From Gemmatimonadaceae bacterium (GTDB lineage Bacteria > Gemmatimonadota > Gemmatimonadetes > Gemmatimonadales > Gemmatimonadaceae): a stretch of DNA of 64,000 nucleotides. Below the pieces are notes generated by a model, which worked only from the letters and a program-made list of their open reading frames with translations, searched no databases and was not told the origin of the DNA. Every line of letters starts with the position of its first letter. Positions within the stretch are counted from its first letter, which is position 1. Positions 4,072-11,900 of the stretch are shown one piece after another. The DNA is taken from contig JBJMOW010000005.1 of the NCBI GenBank assembly GCA_045803545.1, positions 384,001-448,000 of the forward strand, in the 5' to 3' direction. A program made the position numbers and the translations under genes.

Positions 4072-7000
4072 TCAGGGAGTCAGCGGACGGTAAGTGGCTC
4101 GGTCATAGTTGAATTTTAGATCGGGCTCCGCATTGAGGGCAATGAAGAAATTGAACGCGAAGTTCCCGTTCGGCGCCTGGGTAAATCCGAAGATCGCGCG
4201 CCAGTCGTGCAGTTGGCGCTGCAGGGTGACGGTGTGAGCGCCGAATTTCTTGGACTCAAAGTCGTAGTTGGTGCCCCAGGTGCCGGCCCAGTTCTGTGTC
4301 AGGTGGAAATTGAAAGACGAGTTGATGTTCTGGGTTGTCGGTGTCCGCACGAACGGCGCACCTCCCAGGCTGGTCCCCTGGCTGGCGGTGGCATTCTGTG
4401 CCTGCGTCAGGGCCTGCTGCAGACACTGGGTGTAAACGATCGGATTCGCCTGCACCGGTGCACACTGCGCCTCGAAAGAGTTTTGATCGATGATGACGCC
4501 GTTCCCGGTGGGGGGACGCTGCCTATTGAAGTTGTAGTTGAGGCTCAAGCTCCAACCCCGGTCGGCAGGAAGCGAGAACTGCTGTTGGCGCGACGTGATA
4601 CCCGCTATCGGTGTGCTCGCGACCCGGTTGGCAAGCGCGTCCTGGCCGGTTACTTCGGTCGTCTCGATACCCGGATGCGTCGGCGGGACCGCGCGGCCAA
4701 AGAGTCGGGTTATAACGCCGAAGATTCCTGACTGCGCGTTGAGCGATAACGACGAGCTGATGCCGGTCAGATACGGCTTGAAGCGCGCGGTATCGCTGAG
4801 AACTTCGCCCTGGTACAGCGACCAGTGCACGTTCCCCGTAAAACCGGGGAGCAGCTCGGACGTCAGGTTGGTATTGAAGTCCGACGTGCTGAATCCAGAA
4901 CGATGTGTCTTGCGCGCGCGCTCGAAATCGTAGGCCACCGAAGAGAAATCCATCGATAATACTTTGATCTTCTTGGGCTCCGCGACGCTGCTGGTGTCGT
5001 CGCTTCTCACTTTCGCCTCGAGCACGTGAGAGAGACCGAGAGTGATCTTGTTCTCTGCCAGCGACCCGAGAAACTCCTGACGACTGCGATTTGTGGCCTG
5101 CAGGAATTCGTCGCTCAAATGGGCGGTGGGCGAATACGTGTACTGGATCACCGGCGTGATTGAATGCCTGAAGCGACTCACCGGGCCGAAGCCCGGGAAA
5201 AGCGCAAACAGCGTCGGAGAGGCGCTGAGGTTGAAGCTCGGTCGCTTCGACTGATGAACGAACTGTCCATTGCTGAACAGCGATCTCACCCAGAAGCCGT
5301 GACTGCCGTCGACGTTGCTGAATCCAATCGAAGGATTGAGGTTGAGCGATCCGTGAAGCAGCCCGGGCAGCCCGAAAGAGGTCTGCCAATCGACGTTGGT
5401 GTCGAAGGATTTCGCGAACACCCTGCTGGTGCGGATCGAAGAGTCGGCCGGATTGCGGATGACCCACGTTTGCGGCGTGTTCACTTCATTGTCCGTCATC
5501 GAAAAGCTGTTCTGCCAGTTGAACCCGCCGATTCGAATCGGAGTCGAGAAACTCGAGCTGGTGTGTCTCTCGTCGTGTCTGTTCGCGACGGAATCCTGCA
5601 CGCCCCGTGAATTCAGGAAGTACCGATAAGGGAACTCGCTTCCCTGATCCATGTTGAGCGATTGGTTGGTGACGAAACTGAAATTCGGGGTCCAGTCCAG
5701 CCAGCTTGCCAGCGCAATCACCGGCGAGGAGATGCTCAGTTTCGGAAACTCGCGGTCGACTTCTTTCCGGCCGGAGTGCTGCGAATTGCTGAAGCCAAGT
5801 CCGAGGGCTGCGGGTCCGATCTTTGTGTCATAGCTGGCTGTCGAGCGGATCGTGGCCAGCACCTGCGCCACATTGAATGTGGTCTGTCGCTGCAGCGCGG
5901 TGTTGGTCTCGTAATTGATGTCCGCGTGCAGATGGGTGTCCTGCGACAAATCCTGGTTATGATACCAGCTCACGGCAGTGTTCGACGAGCCATCGCGCTG
6001 CGCATGGTAATACGCTCCGATGCGACCACTCATGAACCGGTCGAGCCAACGGTACTGCAGCTCGCCATTGTAGCGCATATAGCCCGGATCGCCTTGGGAC
6101 GGGCGACTTCCACTGCGCCAGTCGAGCGCGACCTGTGCATCCATATAGTCGCTGATCGCGAAGTAGTAGCCGAGGTTATCGATGTGCCGCCGGTACGTCG
6201 GGCTGTTGCGGAATATTTCACTCAGTCCGAAACGCGGCGCGAGCACCCCACTACGTCGTCCGGATCGCAGATCCTGGAAGATGAACGGCAGCCACATGAC
6301 GGGAACGTCGCCGATATAGAGCACTGCCGGACGCGCGACCATAATGTTCTTGGAAACCATCTTGATCTCGTTGGCGCGGAAGTGATAATCGGGGATCGAG
6401 TCGTCGCAGCTGGTAATCGTCCCGTTGCGAACGTAGAAGGCCGTCTCTTTCCCGCGCGACGTGTCGCTCACAAAAGCAGCCGTGCGACCGTTCACGAACC
6501 AGTTCTCTCCGGTCTGGGCGATCTGGGTCTGGATGTTGGTGACAACGCCGCGGTGCAGCTCGACGTTGTACGCCATCTCACCCCTCGCGATGACGTCCGC
6601 CGCCTGCTGCTGTGGATCGCGCAGGATCACGGTGTCACCACGCGCGACGATGATCTTGGTCGAGTCGCTGTAGATGATGCTGTCGCCGACGAGGATCGTC
6701 TGCTCGCGATTGACGCCTGCCGGCTTGCCTTTCAGCGTAAGCGTCTTCGTCTGCACGTTGAACACCGCCTGCGCACCCTGATATCGCGTCGGGGTGTAGC
6801 CTTCCCGGTGCAGCAATGCCTGCATCACCGAGTCGGTATCAGTCCACTTGATCAGATCGCGCTGAGTCGAATCACGCCTGGTCGTGTCGCGCCGGGTGGT
6901 ATCAGGCCGAACTGTCTGCCCGGGTCGCGCACCGCCGACTTGCGCCGAGCTGACATGCGGCGCGAGGGCCAGACCCGAAGCGAGGAGCAACATCATCAGC

Positions 7001-7845
7001 CGCCGCAGGCCAGGTGCTGGAACGGGTTCCGCTGCGCCAAGCTCGGCGGCCCGCGCTTCCGCCTGCTCGCGCAGATCCGCTTCCTCACGCCTGCGTTCGC
7101 GCTTCTCACGCTGCCGAACGACAAAGAACGCGACCGCAACGCTCAGCTCGTACAGGAAATACAGCGGAACCGCTAGTGCGAACAACGAATACGGGTCCGC
7201 GCCCGGCGTGATGAACGCAGCCGCCGTCAGACAAATGACGATGGCGTGCCTTCTGTATTTCGAAAGGAACTTCGGGCTTACTAACCCGAGCGCAGTCAGC
7301 GCCAGAATCGCGATCGGCACTTCGAACACCGCACCGAAGGCGAGGCACATGCTGATTGCAAAGTCGAAATAGTCGGTCGCCGAGATCATCGGAGTCAAAG
7401 CAGTTGACTCGATGCCCATCAGGAACTTCAGCGTCAGCGGCAGCACCACGAAGTAGCTGAGCGCGATCCCGAGCAGGAACAGCACGACGATCGAGACCAG
7501 CACCGGCACGATGACTTTCTTTTCGTGCGCGTAGAGCGCGGGTGCCAGGAATCCCCAGAACTGACCGGCGACAACTGGTGATGCCAGAATGATCCCCAGC
7601 ACCAGCGATGCATTCAACAAAATGTGGAATGAGGTGCCGGGGTGCGTGTAAATCAGCTTTTGCCCGTGCAGCAACGGCAGAATCGGACGCTCGAGCACAC
7701 GGATGATGTCGAGCTTCGATAGTAGAATGAACGCGACGACTACGCCGAGGACAACGGCGGCCGCAATCCAGAATAGGCGGTGGCGCAGCTCCTCGAGATG
7801 GTCGAGGAACGGCATCTCATGGCTTGGAGCTTCACTCATCGCCAC
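4072..7845 (-). CDS. tatC: TatC fused in frame to a putative LPS-assembly protein LptD (start may be ATG 7839)
   Basis: N-terminal EMPFLDHLEELR, multiple hydrophobic spans, FITPGADPYS and LYELS give a full TatC; then a signal-like LRRLMMLLLASGLALAPHVSSA|Q; then LptD-like ITSCD..PDYHFRANEIK...PAVLYIGDVPVMWLPF...RRSGVLAPRFG and beta-strand-rich C-terminus with LQRQLHDW. Confidence 0.88.
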   Translation of the reverse strand: MAMSEAPSHEMPFLDHLEELRHRLFWIAAAVVLGVVVAFILLSKLDIIRVLERPILPLLHGQKLIYTHPGTSFHILLNASLVLGIILASPVVAGQFWGFLAPALYAHEKKVIVPVLVSIVVLFLLGIALSYFVVLPLTLKFLMGIESTALTPMISATDYFDFAISMCLAFGAVFEVPIAILALTALGLVSPKFLSKYRRHAIVICLTAAAFITPGADPYSLFALAVPLYFLYELSVAVAFFVVRQREKRERRREEADLREQAEARAAELGAAEPVPAPGLRRLMMLLLASGLALAPHVSSAQVGGARPGQTVRPDTTRRDTTRRDSTQRDLIKWTDTDSVMQALLHREGYTPTRYQGAQAVFNVQTKTLTLKGKPAGVNREQTILVGDSIIYSDSTKIIVARGDTVILRDPQQQAADVIARGEMAYNVELHRGVVTNIQTQIAQTGENWFVNGRTAAFVSDTSRGKETAFYVRNGTITSCDDSIPDYHFRANEIKMVSKNIMVARPAVLYIGDVPVMWLPFIFQDLRSGRRSGVLAPRFGLSEIFRNSPTYRRHIDNLGYYFAISDYMDAQVALDWRSGSRPSQGDPGYMRYNGELQYRWLDRFMSGRIGAYYHAQRDGSSNTAVSWYHNQDLSQDTHLHADINYETNTALQRQTTFNVAQVLATIRSTASYDTKIGPAALGLGFSNSQHSGRKEVDREFPKLSISSPVIALASWLDWTPNFSFVTNQSLNMDQGSEFPYRYFLNSRGVQDSVANRHDERHTSSSFSTPIRIGGFNWQNSFSMTDNEVNTPQTWVIRNPADSSIRTSRVFAKSFDTNVDWQTSFGLPGLLHGSLNLNPSIGFSNVDGSHGFWVRSLFSNGQFVHQSKRPSFNLSASPTLFALFPGFGPVSRFRHSITPVIQYTYSPTAHLSDEFLQATNRSRQEFLGSLAENKITLGLSHVLEAKVRSDDTSSVAEPKKIKVLSMDFSSVAYDFERARKTHRSGFSTSDFNTNLTSELLPGFTGNVHWSLYQGEVLSDTARFKPYLTGISSSLSLNAQSGIFGVITRLFGRAVPPTHPGIETTEVTGQDALANRVASTPIAGITSRQQQFSLPADRGWSLSLNYNFNRQRPPTGNGVIIDQNSFEAQCAPVQANPIVYTQCLQQALTQAQNATASQGTSLGGAPFVRTPTTQNINSSFNFHLTQNWAGTWGTNYDFESKKFGAHTVTLQRQLHDWRAIFGFTQAPNGNFAFNFFIALNAEPDLKFNYDRATYRPLTP

Positions 7846-7877
7846 CGCCTCCCGCCTCCCACTTCCCGCTTCCCGCT
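7846..7877. repeat. 7-bp tandem repeat (about 4.5 units) between the cpoB stop and the tatC start
   Basis: cgcctcc cgcctcc cacttcc cgcttcc cgct; supplies a GGAGG upstream of tatC. Confidence 0.85.
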
Positions 7878-8709
7878 ATTTAATCGACTGTAAACGCTCA
7901 TCGGCGAGGGCTGCCTCGTCGGAGCGTGGATAACGCTTGATGATGTCCTGGAATATCCGCTTCGCTTCAGCGGTTTTCTTTTGCGCCTGCAGAGACAGCG
8001 CGCGTTTGTACATCGCGGTCGGCACGCGCGGTGAGTTGGGATACTTCTGGATCAACGATGCGTATTCCGCGTCGGCTGCATCGCTGTTTCGCTCAGCTGC
8101 ATACGCCTGCGCCGTATAAAACATCGCGTCGGGCACCAAGTCGGACCTGGGGTATTTCTGAATCAGCTCGGCGAACGCTGCGCGCGCGGACGTGTTGCCA
8201 CCCTTGAGCAGCTGATCGCGGCCCGCCTGTAAGAGTTGCGCGGGACCCGGTCCCCCGGCAGTCGGCTCCGCGGCACTGACTGGAGAAGTGTCTGCGCTCG
8301 TTGGCGCCGGCTGCGTGGTTTTATCCTCGATCTGAGCGCGCATGTCGCGAAGGCGCTGCTCGCTCTGACCACTGAGATCCTGCAGCTGCTGGATGTCTTC
8401 CTTCATTGCGGCCAGGTCAGACTCGCTCGCCGTCTTCATGGCATTGACGCGCCTGCTCAGCGCATTGACCGAATCGGTCAGTGTACGCATGCTGCGCGTA
8501 ACTTCGATCAGATACGCGCGCTGCACGGAATCGGCGGCGGTGGTGCTGGCGCGGGTGCCAACGAGGTCCTGCTGTAACTGGCTGACGTCGGACTTCGTGG
8601 CAAAAAAGCACGCAGCGTTCAGGAGAGGAACACCGAGAACGACCACCCTGCATTTGAAAACCTTCGTCGGGTGGGAAAAGATCCCACTGCGCAAGAATTG
8701 TCTGGTCAT
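7876..8709 (-). CDS. cpoB: Tol-Pal-associated TPR protein CpoB/YbgF, probable lipoprotein
   Basis: Coiled-coil N-half, TPR C-half (KYPRSDLVPDAMFY, KYPNSPRVPTAMYK, RYPRSDEA), directly after tolB; exact start uncertain. Confidence 0.85.
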   Translation of the reverse strand: MTRQFLRSGIFSHPTKVFKCRVVVLGVPLLNAACFFATKSDVSQLQQDLVGTRASTTAADSVQRAYLIEVTRSMRTLTDSVNALSRRVNAMKTASESDLAAMKEDIQQLQDLSGQSEQRLRDMRAQIEDKTTQPAPTSADTSPVSAAEPTAGGPGPAQLLQAGRDQLLKGGNTSARAAFAELIQKYPRSDLVPDAMFYTAQAYAAERNSDAADAEYASLIQKYPNSPRVPTAMYKRALSLQAQKKTAEAKRIFQDIIKRYPRSDEAALADERLQSIK

Positions 8710-10019
8710 TGGGAGTACGAGCCCACTTCAGGGTTTGCGAGAATAGGCGACCACGCTGCCAGCCTCGCTCCCTTGCTGTGAGTGAGCTGCCGAGCGCGAC
8801 CGGATTCCGTATCCACGATCCACAACTGCTTGTCGCCACCACGCGACGACGTGAAAACAAGATGGCGTCCATCAGGCGCCCACGACGGATCTTCGTTCTC
8901 TCCCTCACTGGTCAGCTGCTTTGGTACCCGATCGCGCAGGTCGATCATCCAGACCTGGAAATTCCCGTTCTGCTGCTCGTACGCGATCGCGCGACCATCC
9001 GGCGACCAATCCGGACTCGCACGGTAGCTGCGCACACCAGGCTTGTACGGCGTGAGCAGCTGAACATTGGACCCGTCCGCATCCATAATATAAACCTGAG
9101 GCGACCCGGATCTTCCCGAAATAAACGCGACCTGAGTACCATCGGGACTGTATGATGGCGAAGTGTTGTCGGTGCCTCTGCCGATGGTGATTCTCTTCGG
9201 CTCTGTCGAATCCATCGACGCGAAAACCAGGTCTGTCCCGTTGCCGGTTCCGCGCGCGTAAAGAATCCCGTTTCCGTTCGGTTGATAGACCGGCGTGATG
9301 TTGAGACCGGCGCGAATCTGACTGACGCGACGCGTCTTGCCCGTCTTCACGTCGAGCTCCTGCACCTGAGTACCAGTATTGCCGAGTACGGTGAAGACTA
9401 CTGCTTCGCCCGACGGCGACCATGCTGGCGACAGAGCACCGCGTCCCGTCGTGATTGCGCGCGTCTCGGCGCCATCGCTATCGACGATTTTCAGCTCGCC
9501 GTTTATCACGTACGCGATACGGGTCTGGGCGATGCCGCGCTTTCCAAAAGTCCACGCTTCGATCTGATCGGAGACACCGTGTAAAGCAAATCGCCAATCG
9601 CGATCGCGACGATCGAAAAGAAAATGCTCGGACTGCAACAGCTGTCCCCGAGCCACGTCGTATGCGGCGACGTGGAGTCCCTGTGAAGTCGGCGTCATTC
9701 TCACCAGCAGCGCCGCTCCGAATTTCGCGAACAGTGGAAAATTGATTTTCTGGCCTGCCGACGGTGTCATCCCGCGCAACGTCTCGGCGTCGAGGTCGAC
9801 CACGGTGAACCGGTCGCTGTAATCGAGATCGCGTTGCACGATCGTGCGCAAAGAATCCCTGTCATCGTCCTGAACTGGCAGCACGATTACACCTGGCTTG
9901 GTACCGCTCTCGTAACTGAGCCCGAGGCGGACGCCAGGTGTCGTTGTCGTATCCTGGGCGCGCAAACCCATTGGAGCGACGAGAAGAGCAGCAAGTGCGA
10001 TTAAGACGCGACGATTCAT
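8706..10019 (-). CDS. tolB: TolB
   Basis: Signal peptide, RDLDYSDRF, GIAQTRIAYV, PD40 repeats (SPAWSPSG, SPSYSPDG, SPDWSPDG, PSWAPDG). Confidence 0.92.
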   Translation of the reverse strand: MNRRVLIALAALLVAPMGLRAQDTTTTPGVRLGLSYESGTKPGVIVLPVQDDDRDSLRTIVQRDLDYSDRFTVVDLDAETLRGMTPSAGQKINFPLFAKFGAALLVRMTPTSQGLHVAAYDVARGQLLQSEHFLFDRRDRDWRFALHGVSDQIEAWTFGKRGIAQTRIAYVINGELKIVDSDGAETRAITTGRGALSPAWSPSGEAVVFTVLGNTGTQVQELDVKTGKTRRVSQIRAGLNITPVYQPNGNGILYARGTGNGTDLVFASMDSTEPKRITIGRGTDNTSPSYSPDGTQVAFISGRSGSPQVYIMDADGSNVQLLTPYKPGVRSYRASPDWSPDGRAIAYEQQNGNFQVWMIDLRDRVPKQLTSEGENEDPSWAPDGRHLVFTSSRGGDKQLWIVDTESGRARQLTHSKGARLAAWSPILANPEVGSYSQ

Positions 10020-10771
10020 TACTTCAGGAATTCCGGATCGAAGCTGAAGACGACAGGAAGCGCGTCGTCGGGAAAGCCGGCCGGCAACGGTCCGAATGCG
10101 CGCGTGCTCGAAGCGGCTTCGACCGCTCCCTGCGCTTCGAGATCGAACGAGAAATTGCCGGACTTTCTGATGAATGTGAGATCGGACACGGAGCCATCAC
10201 GATGGATTAAAAACCTTACTTCCGCTCTCAAACGAGCAGCGGGATTTCTTGGTTTGAAGTTCAGCGCAATCTGTCGAACGATGTTGTTGAGATACCCTGG
10301 AAACGGGAACTCGATCCCCTCAGCGCGCACCGTCGCAACGTCGGTTCCCTTCCCGCCAATCGGGCCTCCGCCCGCCTTCGGCGCGTCCGTCTTGGTCTGA
10401 GTGGTTGGCTTGGCTTCGGTCGGTGTTGTCGCTTTCGGTTTTGCCGCAGGAGCCGCTTTTGTCTGCGTCGGCGCCGGCCGTGCTTTCGCCGGCGCGGTCT
10501 TCGCCTTCGGGACAGGCGGTTCCTTGATCGTTGACGGAGCAGGTGTTGGCGGGGTAACAGGTGTTCTCGCCGCCTCTGCGGGCTTCACCTCACCGATCGC
10601 CCGCTCGCCAGGAGGCGCGGCGACGATATTGACCCGGTACATCGGTGGGAGGGCAACGGGCTTTCGCTCTTTAAGGCTGTTGAAGAGCAGCGTCGCGATC
10701 GCGACATGCAGCAGCGCCGAGAAGGTGAACGGAGCGGCGAGTCCCGAATTCTGCCGCGCTCCGTTGCGCAT
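10019..10771 (-). CDS. tolA: TolA/TonB-family energy transducer
   Basis: N-terminal TM with SALLH motif, Pro/Lys/Thr-rich linker, C-terminal SGNFSFD...AV...FGPLP; between tolR and tolB. Confidence 0.8.
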   Translation of the reverse strand: MRNGARQNSGLAAPFTFSALLHVAIATLLFNSLKERKPVALPPMYRVNIVAAPPGERAIGEVKPAEAARTPVTPPTPAPSTIKEPPVPKAKTAPAKARPAPTQTKAAPAAKPKATTPTEAKPTTQTKTDAPKAGGGPIGGKGTDVATVRAEGIEFPFPGYLNNIVRQIALNFKPRNPAARLRAEVRFLIHRDGSVSDLTFIRKSGNFSFDLEAQGAVEAASSTRAFGPLPAGFPDDALPVVFSFDPEFLK

Positions 10772-11184
10772 TACCTGGCCTCGGGCGGCTCGGCGACTAG
10801 TCCGATATCACCGACGCCCGCCGCTCTCATGATCGCCAGCACGCGCACGACTGTGCCGTAAGGGACGCCATCGTCGGCGCGCAGGTAGACCCCGCCGGTG
10901 CCGCGACGGTTTGCCAGCGCTTTGAAGCTTGCTGAGAACTGACTGAAGCTGAGACGCACATCATCAACATAGACCGCACCAGCGCGATCGATGGTCACCG
11001 TCAACCCGCTCTTCGATTCCAGCGGCCGCGACTCCGCTTTTGGCAGAGAGATGTCGACGCCGCCCTGCATCATGGGAGCCGTGATCATGAAGATGATCAT
11101 CAGCAACATCATCACGTCGATCAGGCTGACCACGTTGATCTCCGCGTTCAGTGCCAGGCGATCGCGACCGCGACGGCGCGCCAC
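10771..11184 (-). CDS. tolR: TolR/ExbD
   Basis: AEINVVSLIDVMMLLMIIFMITAP; LRADDGVPYGTVV. Confidence 0.92.
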   Translation of the reverse strand: MARRRGRDRLALNAEINVVSLIDVMMLLMIIFMITAPMMQGGVDISLPKAESRPLESKSGLTVTIDRAGAVYVDDVRLSFSQFSASFKALANRRGTGGVYLRADDGVPYGTVVRVLAIMRAAGVGDIGLVAEPPEAR

Positions 11185-11900
11185 TAGATCATTCCCTCGC
11201 GCACCATCAGCGCGATCAGCTCAGAGCCGAAGCTATCGAGCTCGCCTTCGATTCGGTTGAGACGCGCAGCAAAAATGTTGTACGCGAACACCGCGGGAAT
11301 TGCTACGCTCAACGCAGCTGCTGTTGCGATCAGCGCTTCCGCGACGCCAGGCGCGACCGCACCAATATTGCCCGATCCCTTCGCCGCGATTCCAACGAAG
11401 GCGTCGATGACGCCGAGCACGGTGCCAAGCAGTCCGATCAGCGGACTCACGGATCCGATGGTGGCGAGCGAAGCGACGAAGCGGGCAAGCCTGTCACGCT
11501 CCGTCGAAGTCTCGGCGGCGAGCACGAGCTGAAGCGCTTCGACCTGGGCTCCGCTGAAGCGCGCAGAACGCTCCGATGTGCCGGCGAGCGCGGGCCGAGT
11601 CTCCTCGATGAAGCGAGTCGCCCGCTCCATGACCTTCGCCGGCGGCCCGCCACTTTCGCTCGCCATCTGTTGCGCGCGGGCGAGCGTTGGCATTCCGGCA
11701 AACTCCCGCTCGAAACTCTGGGTGATGCGGAGCGCGCGACGCAGCTCGTACCACTTGGCGAAAATGATCATCCAGCTGATCAACGACAGGATGATCAGAA
11801 TGAACAACACCACTTTGGTGGCAGTCGTTGAATTGGTGACCAGCTCCGCTGGTGAGGTGGGGATTCCCTGCCCGACCTGGAGCAGCATTAAACCGGTCAC
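11184..11900 (-). CDS. tolQ: TolQ/ExbB proton channel
   Basis: LATIGSVSPLIGLLGTVLG, VAPGVAEALIATA, VAIPAVFAYN. Confidence 0.92.
   Translation of the reverse strand: MTGLMLLQVGQGIPTSPAELVTNSTTATKVVLFILIILSLISWMIIFAKWYELRRALRITQSFEREFAGMPTLARAQQMASESGGPPAKVMERATRFIEETRPALAGTSERSARFSGAQVEALQLVLAAETSTERDRLARFVASLATIGSVSPLIGLLGTVLGVIDAFVGIAAKGSGNIGAVAPGVAEALIATAAALSVAIPAVFAYNIFAARLNRIEGELDSFGSELIALMVREGMI

Follow-up and report, generated by a model that had tools for sequence, protein, structure and literature searches.

How can a bacterium make use of a polypeptide whose first part belongs in the inner membrane and whose second part belongs in the outer membrane? This question is raised by an open reading frame (ORF) in a 64,000-nucleotide stretch of DNA, here called the window (positions 384,001 to 448,000 of contig JBJMOW010000005.1, Gemmatimonadaceae assembly GCA_045803545.1), from what is described as a soil Gemmatimonadota bacterium. 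In this ORF, the sequence of TatC, the receptor of the twin-arginine translocation (Tat) pathway, continues without a stop codon through a segment resembling a signal peptide into the sequence of LptD, the lipopolysaccharide (LPS) translocon of the outer membrane. We find that the fused frame is real, recurrent and conserved. Its sequence and those of its relatives indicate that export most likely obliges the cell to cleave the chain into two parts.

One reading frame for two membrane proteins

The fused ORF and its parts are as follows; AF2 stands for AlphaFold2, and relatives with separate tatC and lptD genes are called split.

4072..7845, minus strand: fused ORF, 1257 codons plus a stop, GTG start (ORF list and translation)
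7117..7845, minus strand: TatC part, residues 1-243, six helices (Pfam, NCBIfam, PDB match, AF2)
7006..7116, minus strand: charged linker, residues 244-280, RQREKRERRREEADLREQAEARAAELGAAEPVPAPG (translation, alignment to split relatives)
6943..7005, minus strand: signal-peptide-like segment, residues 281-301, L-RR-LMMLLLASGLALA-PHVSSA (translation, rule-based parse)
6988..6996, minus strand: in-frame ATG ATG TTG, codons 284-286, after the RR, possible internal starts (codon reading)
6940..6942, minus strand: codon of Gln302, proposed start of mature LptD, with the cut between 6943 and 6942 (codon reading, alignment)
4075..6942, minus strand: LptD-like part, residues 302-1257, 956 residues (Pfam LptD_2, weak NCBIfam and PDB matches)

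An earlier note, made from the sequence of the window alone, had described one uninterrupted ORF of 1257 codons, and the ORF list and the translation of 4072-7845, a single open frame with no stop inside it, bear this out. A database cluster that is 100% identical to the fused ORF (P0002) is only 1255 amino acids long, so translation probably begins with the ATG of residue 3 (window 7839-7837) and not with the GTG.

TatC is an inner-membrane protein with six spans and a cytoplasmic C-terminus (structures 4b4a and 4hts). The note had placed a full TatC in about the first 250 residues, and three kinds of match agree with it. Pfam TatC (PF00902) covers residues 15-227 (window 7165-7803; E 1.6e-62, 211.5 bits against a cut-off of 25.1) over the entire model, positions 1-208 of 208; the NCBIfam tatC equivalog TIGR00945 scores 188.8 bits against a cut-off of 132.7; and the TatC of PDB entry 4b4a matches residues 11-249 (E 2.5e-44), the solved TatC structures together spanning residues 11-264. 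The N-terminal 250 residues correspond to TatC over their entire length; canonical TatC terminates in the cytoplasm after six spans. In an AF2 model of residues 1-330, built on an alignment of 67 fused sequences in which 29 TatC columns are invariant, TatC is predicted confidently (predicted local distance difference test, pLDDT, of the model 82.8), with helices at 12-45, 71-103, 106-145, 156-185, 191-212 and from 218 onward.

The C-terminal part opens with a low-complexity stretch rich in Thr, Arg and Asp (residues 302-331). Pfam LptD_2 (PF19838) matches residues 503-976 (window 4918-6339; E 3.1e-35, 122.2 bits against a cut-off of 22.5), and this match, together with a weak one to the LptD structure 7omm (residues 399-651, E 8.3e-6), upholds the LptD-like region of about 956 residues that the note had proposed. 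A second structure, 8h1r, matches at E 1.3e-4, the overall span being residues 397-651; canonical LptD begins with a Met and a signal peptide of its own. The classical LptD family (PF04453) has no match in the fused protein or anywhere in the genome, and the NCBIfam LptD equivalogs PRK04423 and PRK03761 score weakly (43.3 and 28.9 bits, where the cut-offs are 944 and 683; residues 350-553 and 460-642). Judged by these profiles, the LptD half is an LptD_2-type relative and not a proteobacterial-type equivalog.

The genome (G000) is a metagenome-type assembly of 6 contigs with 93% completeness, in which the fused ORF is the sole match to TatC in a profile search and the sole match to LptD_2. Two signal peptidase I (Peptidase_S26) genes and LptF/G genes are present, the TAT_signal model (PF10518) has two matches, both elsewhere than in the fused ORF, and there is a single TatA_B_E match. 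With tatC and lptD in single copy and these partners at hand, both functions are expected to be needed. The TatA/B/E match (G000:C4:376971-377123) lies about 7 kb outside the window and does not adjoin tatC.

The joint reads ...FVVRQREKRERRREEADLREQAEARAAELGAAEPVPAPG-LRR-LMMLLLASGLALA-PHVSSA/QVGGARPGQ..., the slash marking the proposed cut. The details given in the note, namely the linker RQREKRERRREEAD, the LRR-LMMLLLASGLALA-PHVSSA/Q segment, the Gln302 codon at 6942-6940 and the ATG ATG at 6996/6993, all agree with the translation and the codon positions. A stop or an indel in the linker, either of which would have told against the note, was not seen. Two contigs of run X1, which may be the source sample, span the joint (6684-6976 and 6949-7473) with 0 differences and 0 gaps, and a contig of another study (X6; 6892-7164) spans it with 7 substitutions and 0 gaps. 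No contig compared over the joint contains an indel; the difference at 6985, in the third position of the codon for Leu287, leaves the amino acid unchanged. Furthermore, about 29 full-length fused database clusters with 59-100% identity come from independent sources (JGI, NCBI and ENA), a recurrence that places the fused frame far beyond chance, and genome G014 has the same two-domain fused frame at 89% identity.

The joint and its two-gene ancestors

The hydrophobic segment at the joint shares its ancestry with the N-terminal signal peptides that LptD carries where it has a gene of its own. In the window it consists of RR, 19 uncharged residues and S-S-A/Q (−3 S, −1 A), and a parse that uses our own rules, not SignalP, finds in it the anatomy of a Sec/signal peptidase I substrate: a positive n-region, an uncharged h-region, agreement with the −3/−1 rule and no Pro at +1. 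The signal-peptide-like segment ending SSA/Q302 that the note had described is thus supported by both anatomy and homology. The sequence from Gln302 begins QVGGARPGQTVR, and this Gln is nearly invariant in the alignment of the 67 fused relatives.

The same anatomy holds for all 67 parsed fused loci, each with a positively charged loop ahead of the uncharged stretch, and for 44/46 split loci. The counts at −1 and +1, which are partly circular, give Ala in 60 and Gly in 7 of the fused loci and Ala in 40/44 split loci at −1, and Gln in 67/67 fused and 44/46 split loci at +1. Position −3 is L, A, V, S or G in 67/67 fused loci, compared to 38% of control small-Q dipeptides, and a small residue plus Q follows the hydrophobic core in 67/68 fused loci, compared to 32% of random 24-residue windows. 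Fused loci have an uncharged stretch of 16-25 residues and split loci one of 14-24; the eight residues ahead of it carry a median net charge of +4 in fused loci, and the n-region is net positive in 42/44 split LptDs.

The Gln at +1 of the parsed LptDs, fused and split, recalls the 'Q rule' of Bacteroidetes; the accessible part of the paper on this rule (PMC5837995) does not mention Gemmatimonadetes. A genome-wide scan for Q at +1 with a crude regular expression returned 40 of 555 (7.2%) against a background of 3.4%, about two-fold, and a stricter first expression just 4 matches; such expressions are poor predictors, and no conclusion is drawn from them.

Aligned to split relatives, the linker is recognisable as the former TatC tail, now read into the lptD frame. 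AF2 extends helix 6 through it up to residue 270. The loop between helix 6 and the segment measures 40 residues in the window, 30-40 residues in five loci of genus g1, and 5-14 residues in 55/60 parsed loci of family f2 (8 residues in 18 of them). In the closest clade, RR directly precedes the segment in all listed clusters.

In all families with coordinates examined (f1-f4, f6-f8, f10 and f12 of the 12 families sampled), lptD is adjacent to and follows tatC. Split loci (e.g. L005-L008, L030, L031 and L093-L112) encode the same proteins in the same order, with an LptD signal peptide that ends A-x-A/Q. In 35/43 split loci the tatC stop and the lptD start overlap (RTGA), in 40/43 they lie within 5 nucleotides of each other, and a Shine-Dalgarno-like GGGAG or GGGGG is found about 10 nucleotides upstream of the lptD start. 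By this overlap and this motif, the two genes are taken to have been translationally coupled already in their ancestral two-gene form. The note had proposed that the fusion couples the production of the Tat receptor and the LPS translocon; the coupling stands, but as a trait of the split ancestor and not one specific to the fusion. Compared to the split Gemmatimonadota loci, the window has lost the stop, the start and the motif.

Several split loci are noteworthy in their own right. In four of them (L013, L113, L115 and L117, from the more distantly related G040, G298, G108 and G060, respectively), tatC and lptD are in frame with one stop codon between them (in L013 a TAG followed directly by GTG), so that read-through of the stop alone would yield a fused chain. 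The nearest split relative of the window's clade, L005 (G024), has six tandem copies of AVSPQS in the LptD n-region between MMPRRRE and the hydrophobic core (oriented positions ~1246-1500). In L021 (G032), the lptD frame after the tatC stop has no recognisable hydrophobic segment (VPRRAGRRAAASGPPPPQPARGE...), unlike that of its 94%-similar neighbour L020, which may reflect a frameshift or an assembly error.

The fusion is widespread. Proteins of 691-2200 amino acids that match the TatC part number 561 at E 0.001, and 119 of the best 120 are TatC plus LptD_2; the named entries are labelled 'TatC' and come from metagenome-assembled genomes of Gemmatimonadota. In a sample of 401 genomes of the phylum, 64 genomes of family f2 are listed with a stop-free match over both halves (one of them G209, which is unpublished); in f1, the window genome's own family, only G000, G077 and G120 are listed with such a match, to which G014, G001 and G008 add within the genus. 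One f4 genome, G207, is fused as well. An even draw of 141 f2 genomes from 73 genera contains at least 108 with the fusion, i.e. 100 with one stop-free match of a junction-spanning query across the joint (one being G209) and 8 with both halves in the same ORF; the remainder comprises 14 possible and 10 split cases and 9 left unassigned. As 81 of the 100 full-span genomes contain no other match to the junction query, the fused gene is their only LptD source. Together with the roughly 29 fused clusters and the retained cleavage site, these counts answer the note's call for a search of related genomes.

ORF length as a criterion of fusion was rejected, since split f1 genomes hold lptD-frame ORFs of at least 1200 amino acids where an alternative frame happens to be open; for this reason the 14 f2 genomes with only a long ORF were left as possible. 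The matches also include a protein of another kind (P0122, 813 amino acids, JGI), in which HSP70/MreB-type domains (PF00012, PF06723) accompany a TatC 82% identical to that of the window; it is either another TatC fusion or a gene-call merge.

A FastTree phylogeny of TatC plus LptD from 108 loci, excluding eight partial loci and with L009 represented without TatC, requires at least 7 changes between the split and fused states, and 0/500 shuffles gave a number as low. The outgroup rows are split, and in each of f1/g1, f1/g12, f2 and f4 the fused rows are nested among split ones. The window genome and G014 form a pair whose next relative, L005, is split, which points to an origin separate from that in f2. 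On this tree, fusions arose several times, and that of the window is a separate, long-linker case. The f2 fusions (~1150-1200 residues, e.g. L014) have the same domain order, internal signal peptide and site; they differ in their origin on the tree, in their short loops and in that most lack a Met at the joint, whereas the window keeps ATG ATG. In the sister pair L003/L091, the fusion looks like a deletion of 2 nucleotides in the overlapping GTGA (GGCGTGATG versus AGC--GATC), which removes the stop and the start at once.

Proposed resolution of the fused chain

Since the frame contains no stop, every TatC is made with LptD attached, and the cell must handle the chain. We propose that the two-gene ancestor with its overlapping tatC stop and lptD start (RTGA) suffered a small indel that merged the frames. 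Translation would then pass the six spans of TatC without a stop and continue through the Arg-rich cytoplasmic linker into the former LptD signal peptide. As the C-terminus of TatC is cytoplasmic, the Arg-rich loop and the signal peptide would be oriented to insert, with the A-x-A site facing the periplasmic signal peptidase I. The segment would insert as a seventh span (N-in, C-out) while the LptD part of 956 residues passes through SecYEG; cleavage by signal peptidase I after SSA301 would free an LptD with N-terminal Gln302 that travels via chaperones to the β-barrel assembly machinery (BAM) and into the outer membrane; and the linker and signal peptide would remain on TatC as a seventh helix at its C-terminus.

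Considering (i) that f2 genomes usually carry the fused form, (ii) that start codons at the joint have been lost in many fused loci (see below) and (iii) that the −3/−1/+1 site is kept as in split genes, we think it likely that the window encodes a natural polyprotein that is resolved by signal peptidase I and leaves TatC with the signal peptide as its seventh helix. For the f2 proteins we favour this polyprotein with greater confidence than for the window genome. One consequence could be that the retained LptD signal peptide, with its Arg-Arg n-region, sits in or beside the TatC surface that receives signal peptides and TatB/TatA, acting as a pseudo-substrate or a subunit contact that alters receptor assembly or gating. 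We regard this as improbable; in the short-loop family, where helix 7 would lie within about 8 residues of helix 6, some contact with TatC would be hard to avoid.

Several points weigh against the polyprotein. Cleavage, the topology of insertion, the fate of the seventh helix and the function of both products are what we infer from sequence, and the only contig from an RNA run (X7) covers 6500-6701, ending short of the joint. The site finder demanded a small residue plus Q, which makes the −1 and +1 counts partly circular, although not those for −3 and the match rate; likewise, the f2 loci for the codon analysis and the tree were chosen as fused, which biases the proportions on the tree. AF2 draws no hairpin of helices 6 and 7, either for the window protein, where the signal-peptide helix (279-293) has a pLDDT of only ~57-73 and gives no packing information, or for the short-loop relative L014, where helix 6, the loop and the hydrophobic segment form one 46-residue helix; the model lacks a membrane and is uninformative as to the hairpin in L014. 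Further points concern start codons. A GTG lies within or before the segment in 50/67 fused loci, so that non-ATG starts are possible there, with many of the residual GTGs sitting in the hydrophobic core or in helix 6. The window genome, unlike many f2 genomes, retains ATG ATG TTG at the head of the segment, and the 18 nucleotides upstream of each (−20 to −3) pair with the 16S tail, which has the canonical CCUCC, at −5.0, −6.6 and −8.1 kcal/mol, respectively. Finally, one DNA alignment (MAFFT) sets the window's CTGATGATG against the GTGATG start of split relatives, making ATG 6996 a retained ancestral start (CTGATG versus GTGATG).

These last points speak for internal initiation, in which the frames merged by accident, working LptD is made from the ATGs at 6996/6993, and the cell tolerates the read-through chain as a by-product, which it cuts or degrades. 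The Met is retained in most of the closest clusters, and fused and split forms toggle within the genus, so the fusion in the window may be young. Even so, in the absence of a stop TatC is never made without the fused chain, which needs handling anyway. A start at codon 284 would, moreover, give a signal peptide with no basic residue, compared to the net-positive n-regions of nearly all split LptDs, while the upstream RR is conserved in the clade, in which two clusters (P0004 and P0006) have Leu in place of the Met. In the protein set at large, M, I, V and A all occur as the residue that follows RRRARR.

The ribosome-binding potential and the codons themselves point in the same direction. The joint in the window has lost the GGGGG/GGGAG motif seen in split relatives, and at five split relatives of the same genus the same pairing reaches −8.6 kcal/mol. 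The median upstream pairing is −5.0 kcal/mol in fused loci (27% at or below −6) and −6.5 kcal/mol in split loci (61%), against a background of −3.1 kcal/mol (18%). A codon-by-codon reading that runs from the basic cluster behind helix 6 to a point 13 residues short of the site finds no ATG, GTG or TTG in 17/67 fused loci and no ATG in 53/67 (L088 was unparsed), so that there are fused lineages without any start codon for a separate LptD. We therefore consider internal initiation unlikely as the explanation of the window's frame, though it is the main rival to the polyprotein.

That the chain stays uncut, with a disordered Thr/Arg/Asp-rich or Pro-rich stretch spanning the periplasm and tethering the two membranes, is very improbable. 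Cleavage is deduced here and not directly seen, and the fused forms do carry a low-complexity stretch of 30-60 residues after the segment, but split genes carry the same stretch. A tether would have no need of the −3/−1 motif, which is kept in 67/67 loci across family-level divergence, and the uncharged stretch of 16-25 residues followed by a helix-breaking c-region resembles cleavable signals; the genome also encodes signal peptidase I twice.

An assembly indel or a recent frameshift in a dying gene, devoid of functional meaning, could arise from a single small indel in a metagenome-type assembly such as this, but is scarcely credible in view of the indel-free joint in contigs of two studies, the fused frame common to G014 and the database clusters, and the conservation of both halves, each a sole copy. 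Equally hard to believe is a twin-arginine signal that passes LptD to the Tat pathway by way of its own TatC: for all the LRRLMM here and the RR-x-hydrophobic pattern in many split relatives, the segment is short, strongly hydrophobic and Sec-like, lies internally behind six spans where it cannot act as a free N-terminal Tat signal, and is passed over by the TAT_signal model, in line with the note's view that the RR is not a canonical twin-arginine motif, while Arg-rich n-regions are expected at 60% GC content. An unfolded barrel is, besides, not a Tat cargo.

Neighbourhood, precedents and wider meaning

The operon neighbourhood was annotated for the window only. On the same strand, a tol-type cluster (7876-11900) upstream runs directly into tatC-lptD, with the following genes, all assigned by Pfam.

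11184-11900, minus strand: tolQ-like
10771-11184, minus strand: tolR/ExbD-like
10019-10771, minus strand: TonB_2/TolA-like
8706-10019, minus strand: TolB-like PD40
7876-8709, minus strand: TPR/YfiO-like (CpoB/YbgF-type)

The interval from tolB to the TPR gene contains no pal-like (OmpA-type) ORF of at least 120 amino acids. Downstream of the fused ORF lie a DUF1835 gene and hutH/hutU.

Literature searches on TatC/LptD fusion, Gemmatimonad TatC, internal signal peptides and polyproteins found no description of a TatC-LptD fusion. A 2013 survey of TatC (PMC3827258) covers a single Gemmatimonadetes genome; the accessible part of its text contains none of the words fused, fusion and LptD. At the joint of core and E1 in hepatitis C virus, a viral polyprotein is cut by the host signal peptidase at an internal signal peptide (PMC5402940, as far as accessible); there, as in our model, the signal peptide of the downstream product forms the end of the upstream one and anchors it even after the cut. 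The viral case differs in being set in the eukaryotic endoplasmic reticulum, and for the window a second protease that would remove the retained segment is neither known nor part of our proposal.

A bacterial parallel is FbcH of Bradyrhizobium japonicum, reportedly studied by Thony-Meyer and colleagues in about 1989-1991, a cytochrome b/c1 precursor that is said to be divided where the signal peptide of cytochrome c1 lies within the chain. By this account, FbcH is, like the window protein, a polytopic inner-membrane protein with a cytoplasmic C-terminus that continues into a Sec signal peptide and then an exported protein; FbcH is resolved after translation, as we propose for the window protein. 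Its partners, however, are said to be two subunits of one complex in one membrane, whereas the window would combine two unrelated machines in two membranes, with a very large outer-membrane barrel as the passenger. A downstream product with no start of its own, as would be expected of an FbcH-type polyprotein, is found in those relatives of the window that lack start codons at the joint, and not in the window genome itself, which keeps ATG ATG TTG. The TatC-LptD protein adds a new pair of partners to a type of mechanism that is already known.

Public annotation names the fused proteins only 'twin-arginine translocase subunit TatC'. LptD consequently looks missing from hundreds of Gemmatimonadota genomes, and reconstructions of the pathway can be misled.

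Should the chain be made and then cleaved in the proposed way, a giant outer-membrane barrel would be delivered co-translationally as the C-terminal passenger of a polytopic inner-membrane protein across a whole family of bacteria, which would bear on how flexible the targeting of outer-membrane proteins is. The TatC that remains would be a natural seven-helix form and, as such, a test case for models of the Tat receptor. Furthermore, the loci would illustrate a general route to fusion: where a membrane protein ends in the cytoplasm, its stop overlaps the next start and a signal peptide follows, an indel that merges the frames would be nearly harmless. Here, such an event happened at least four times.

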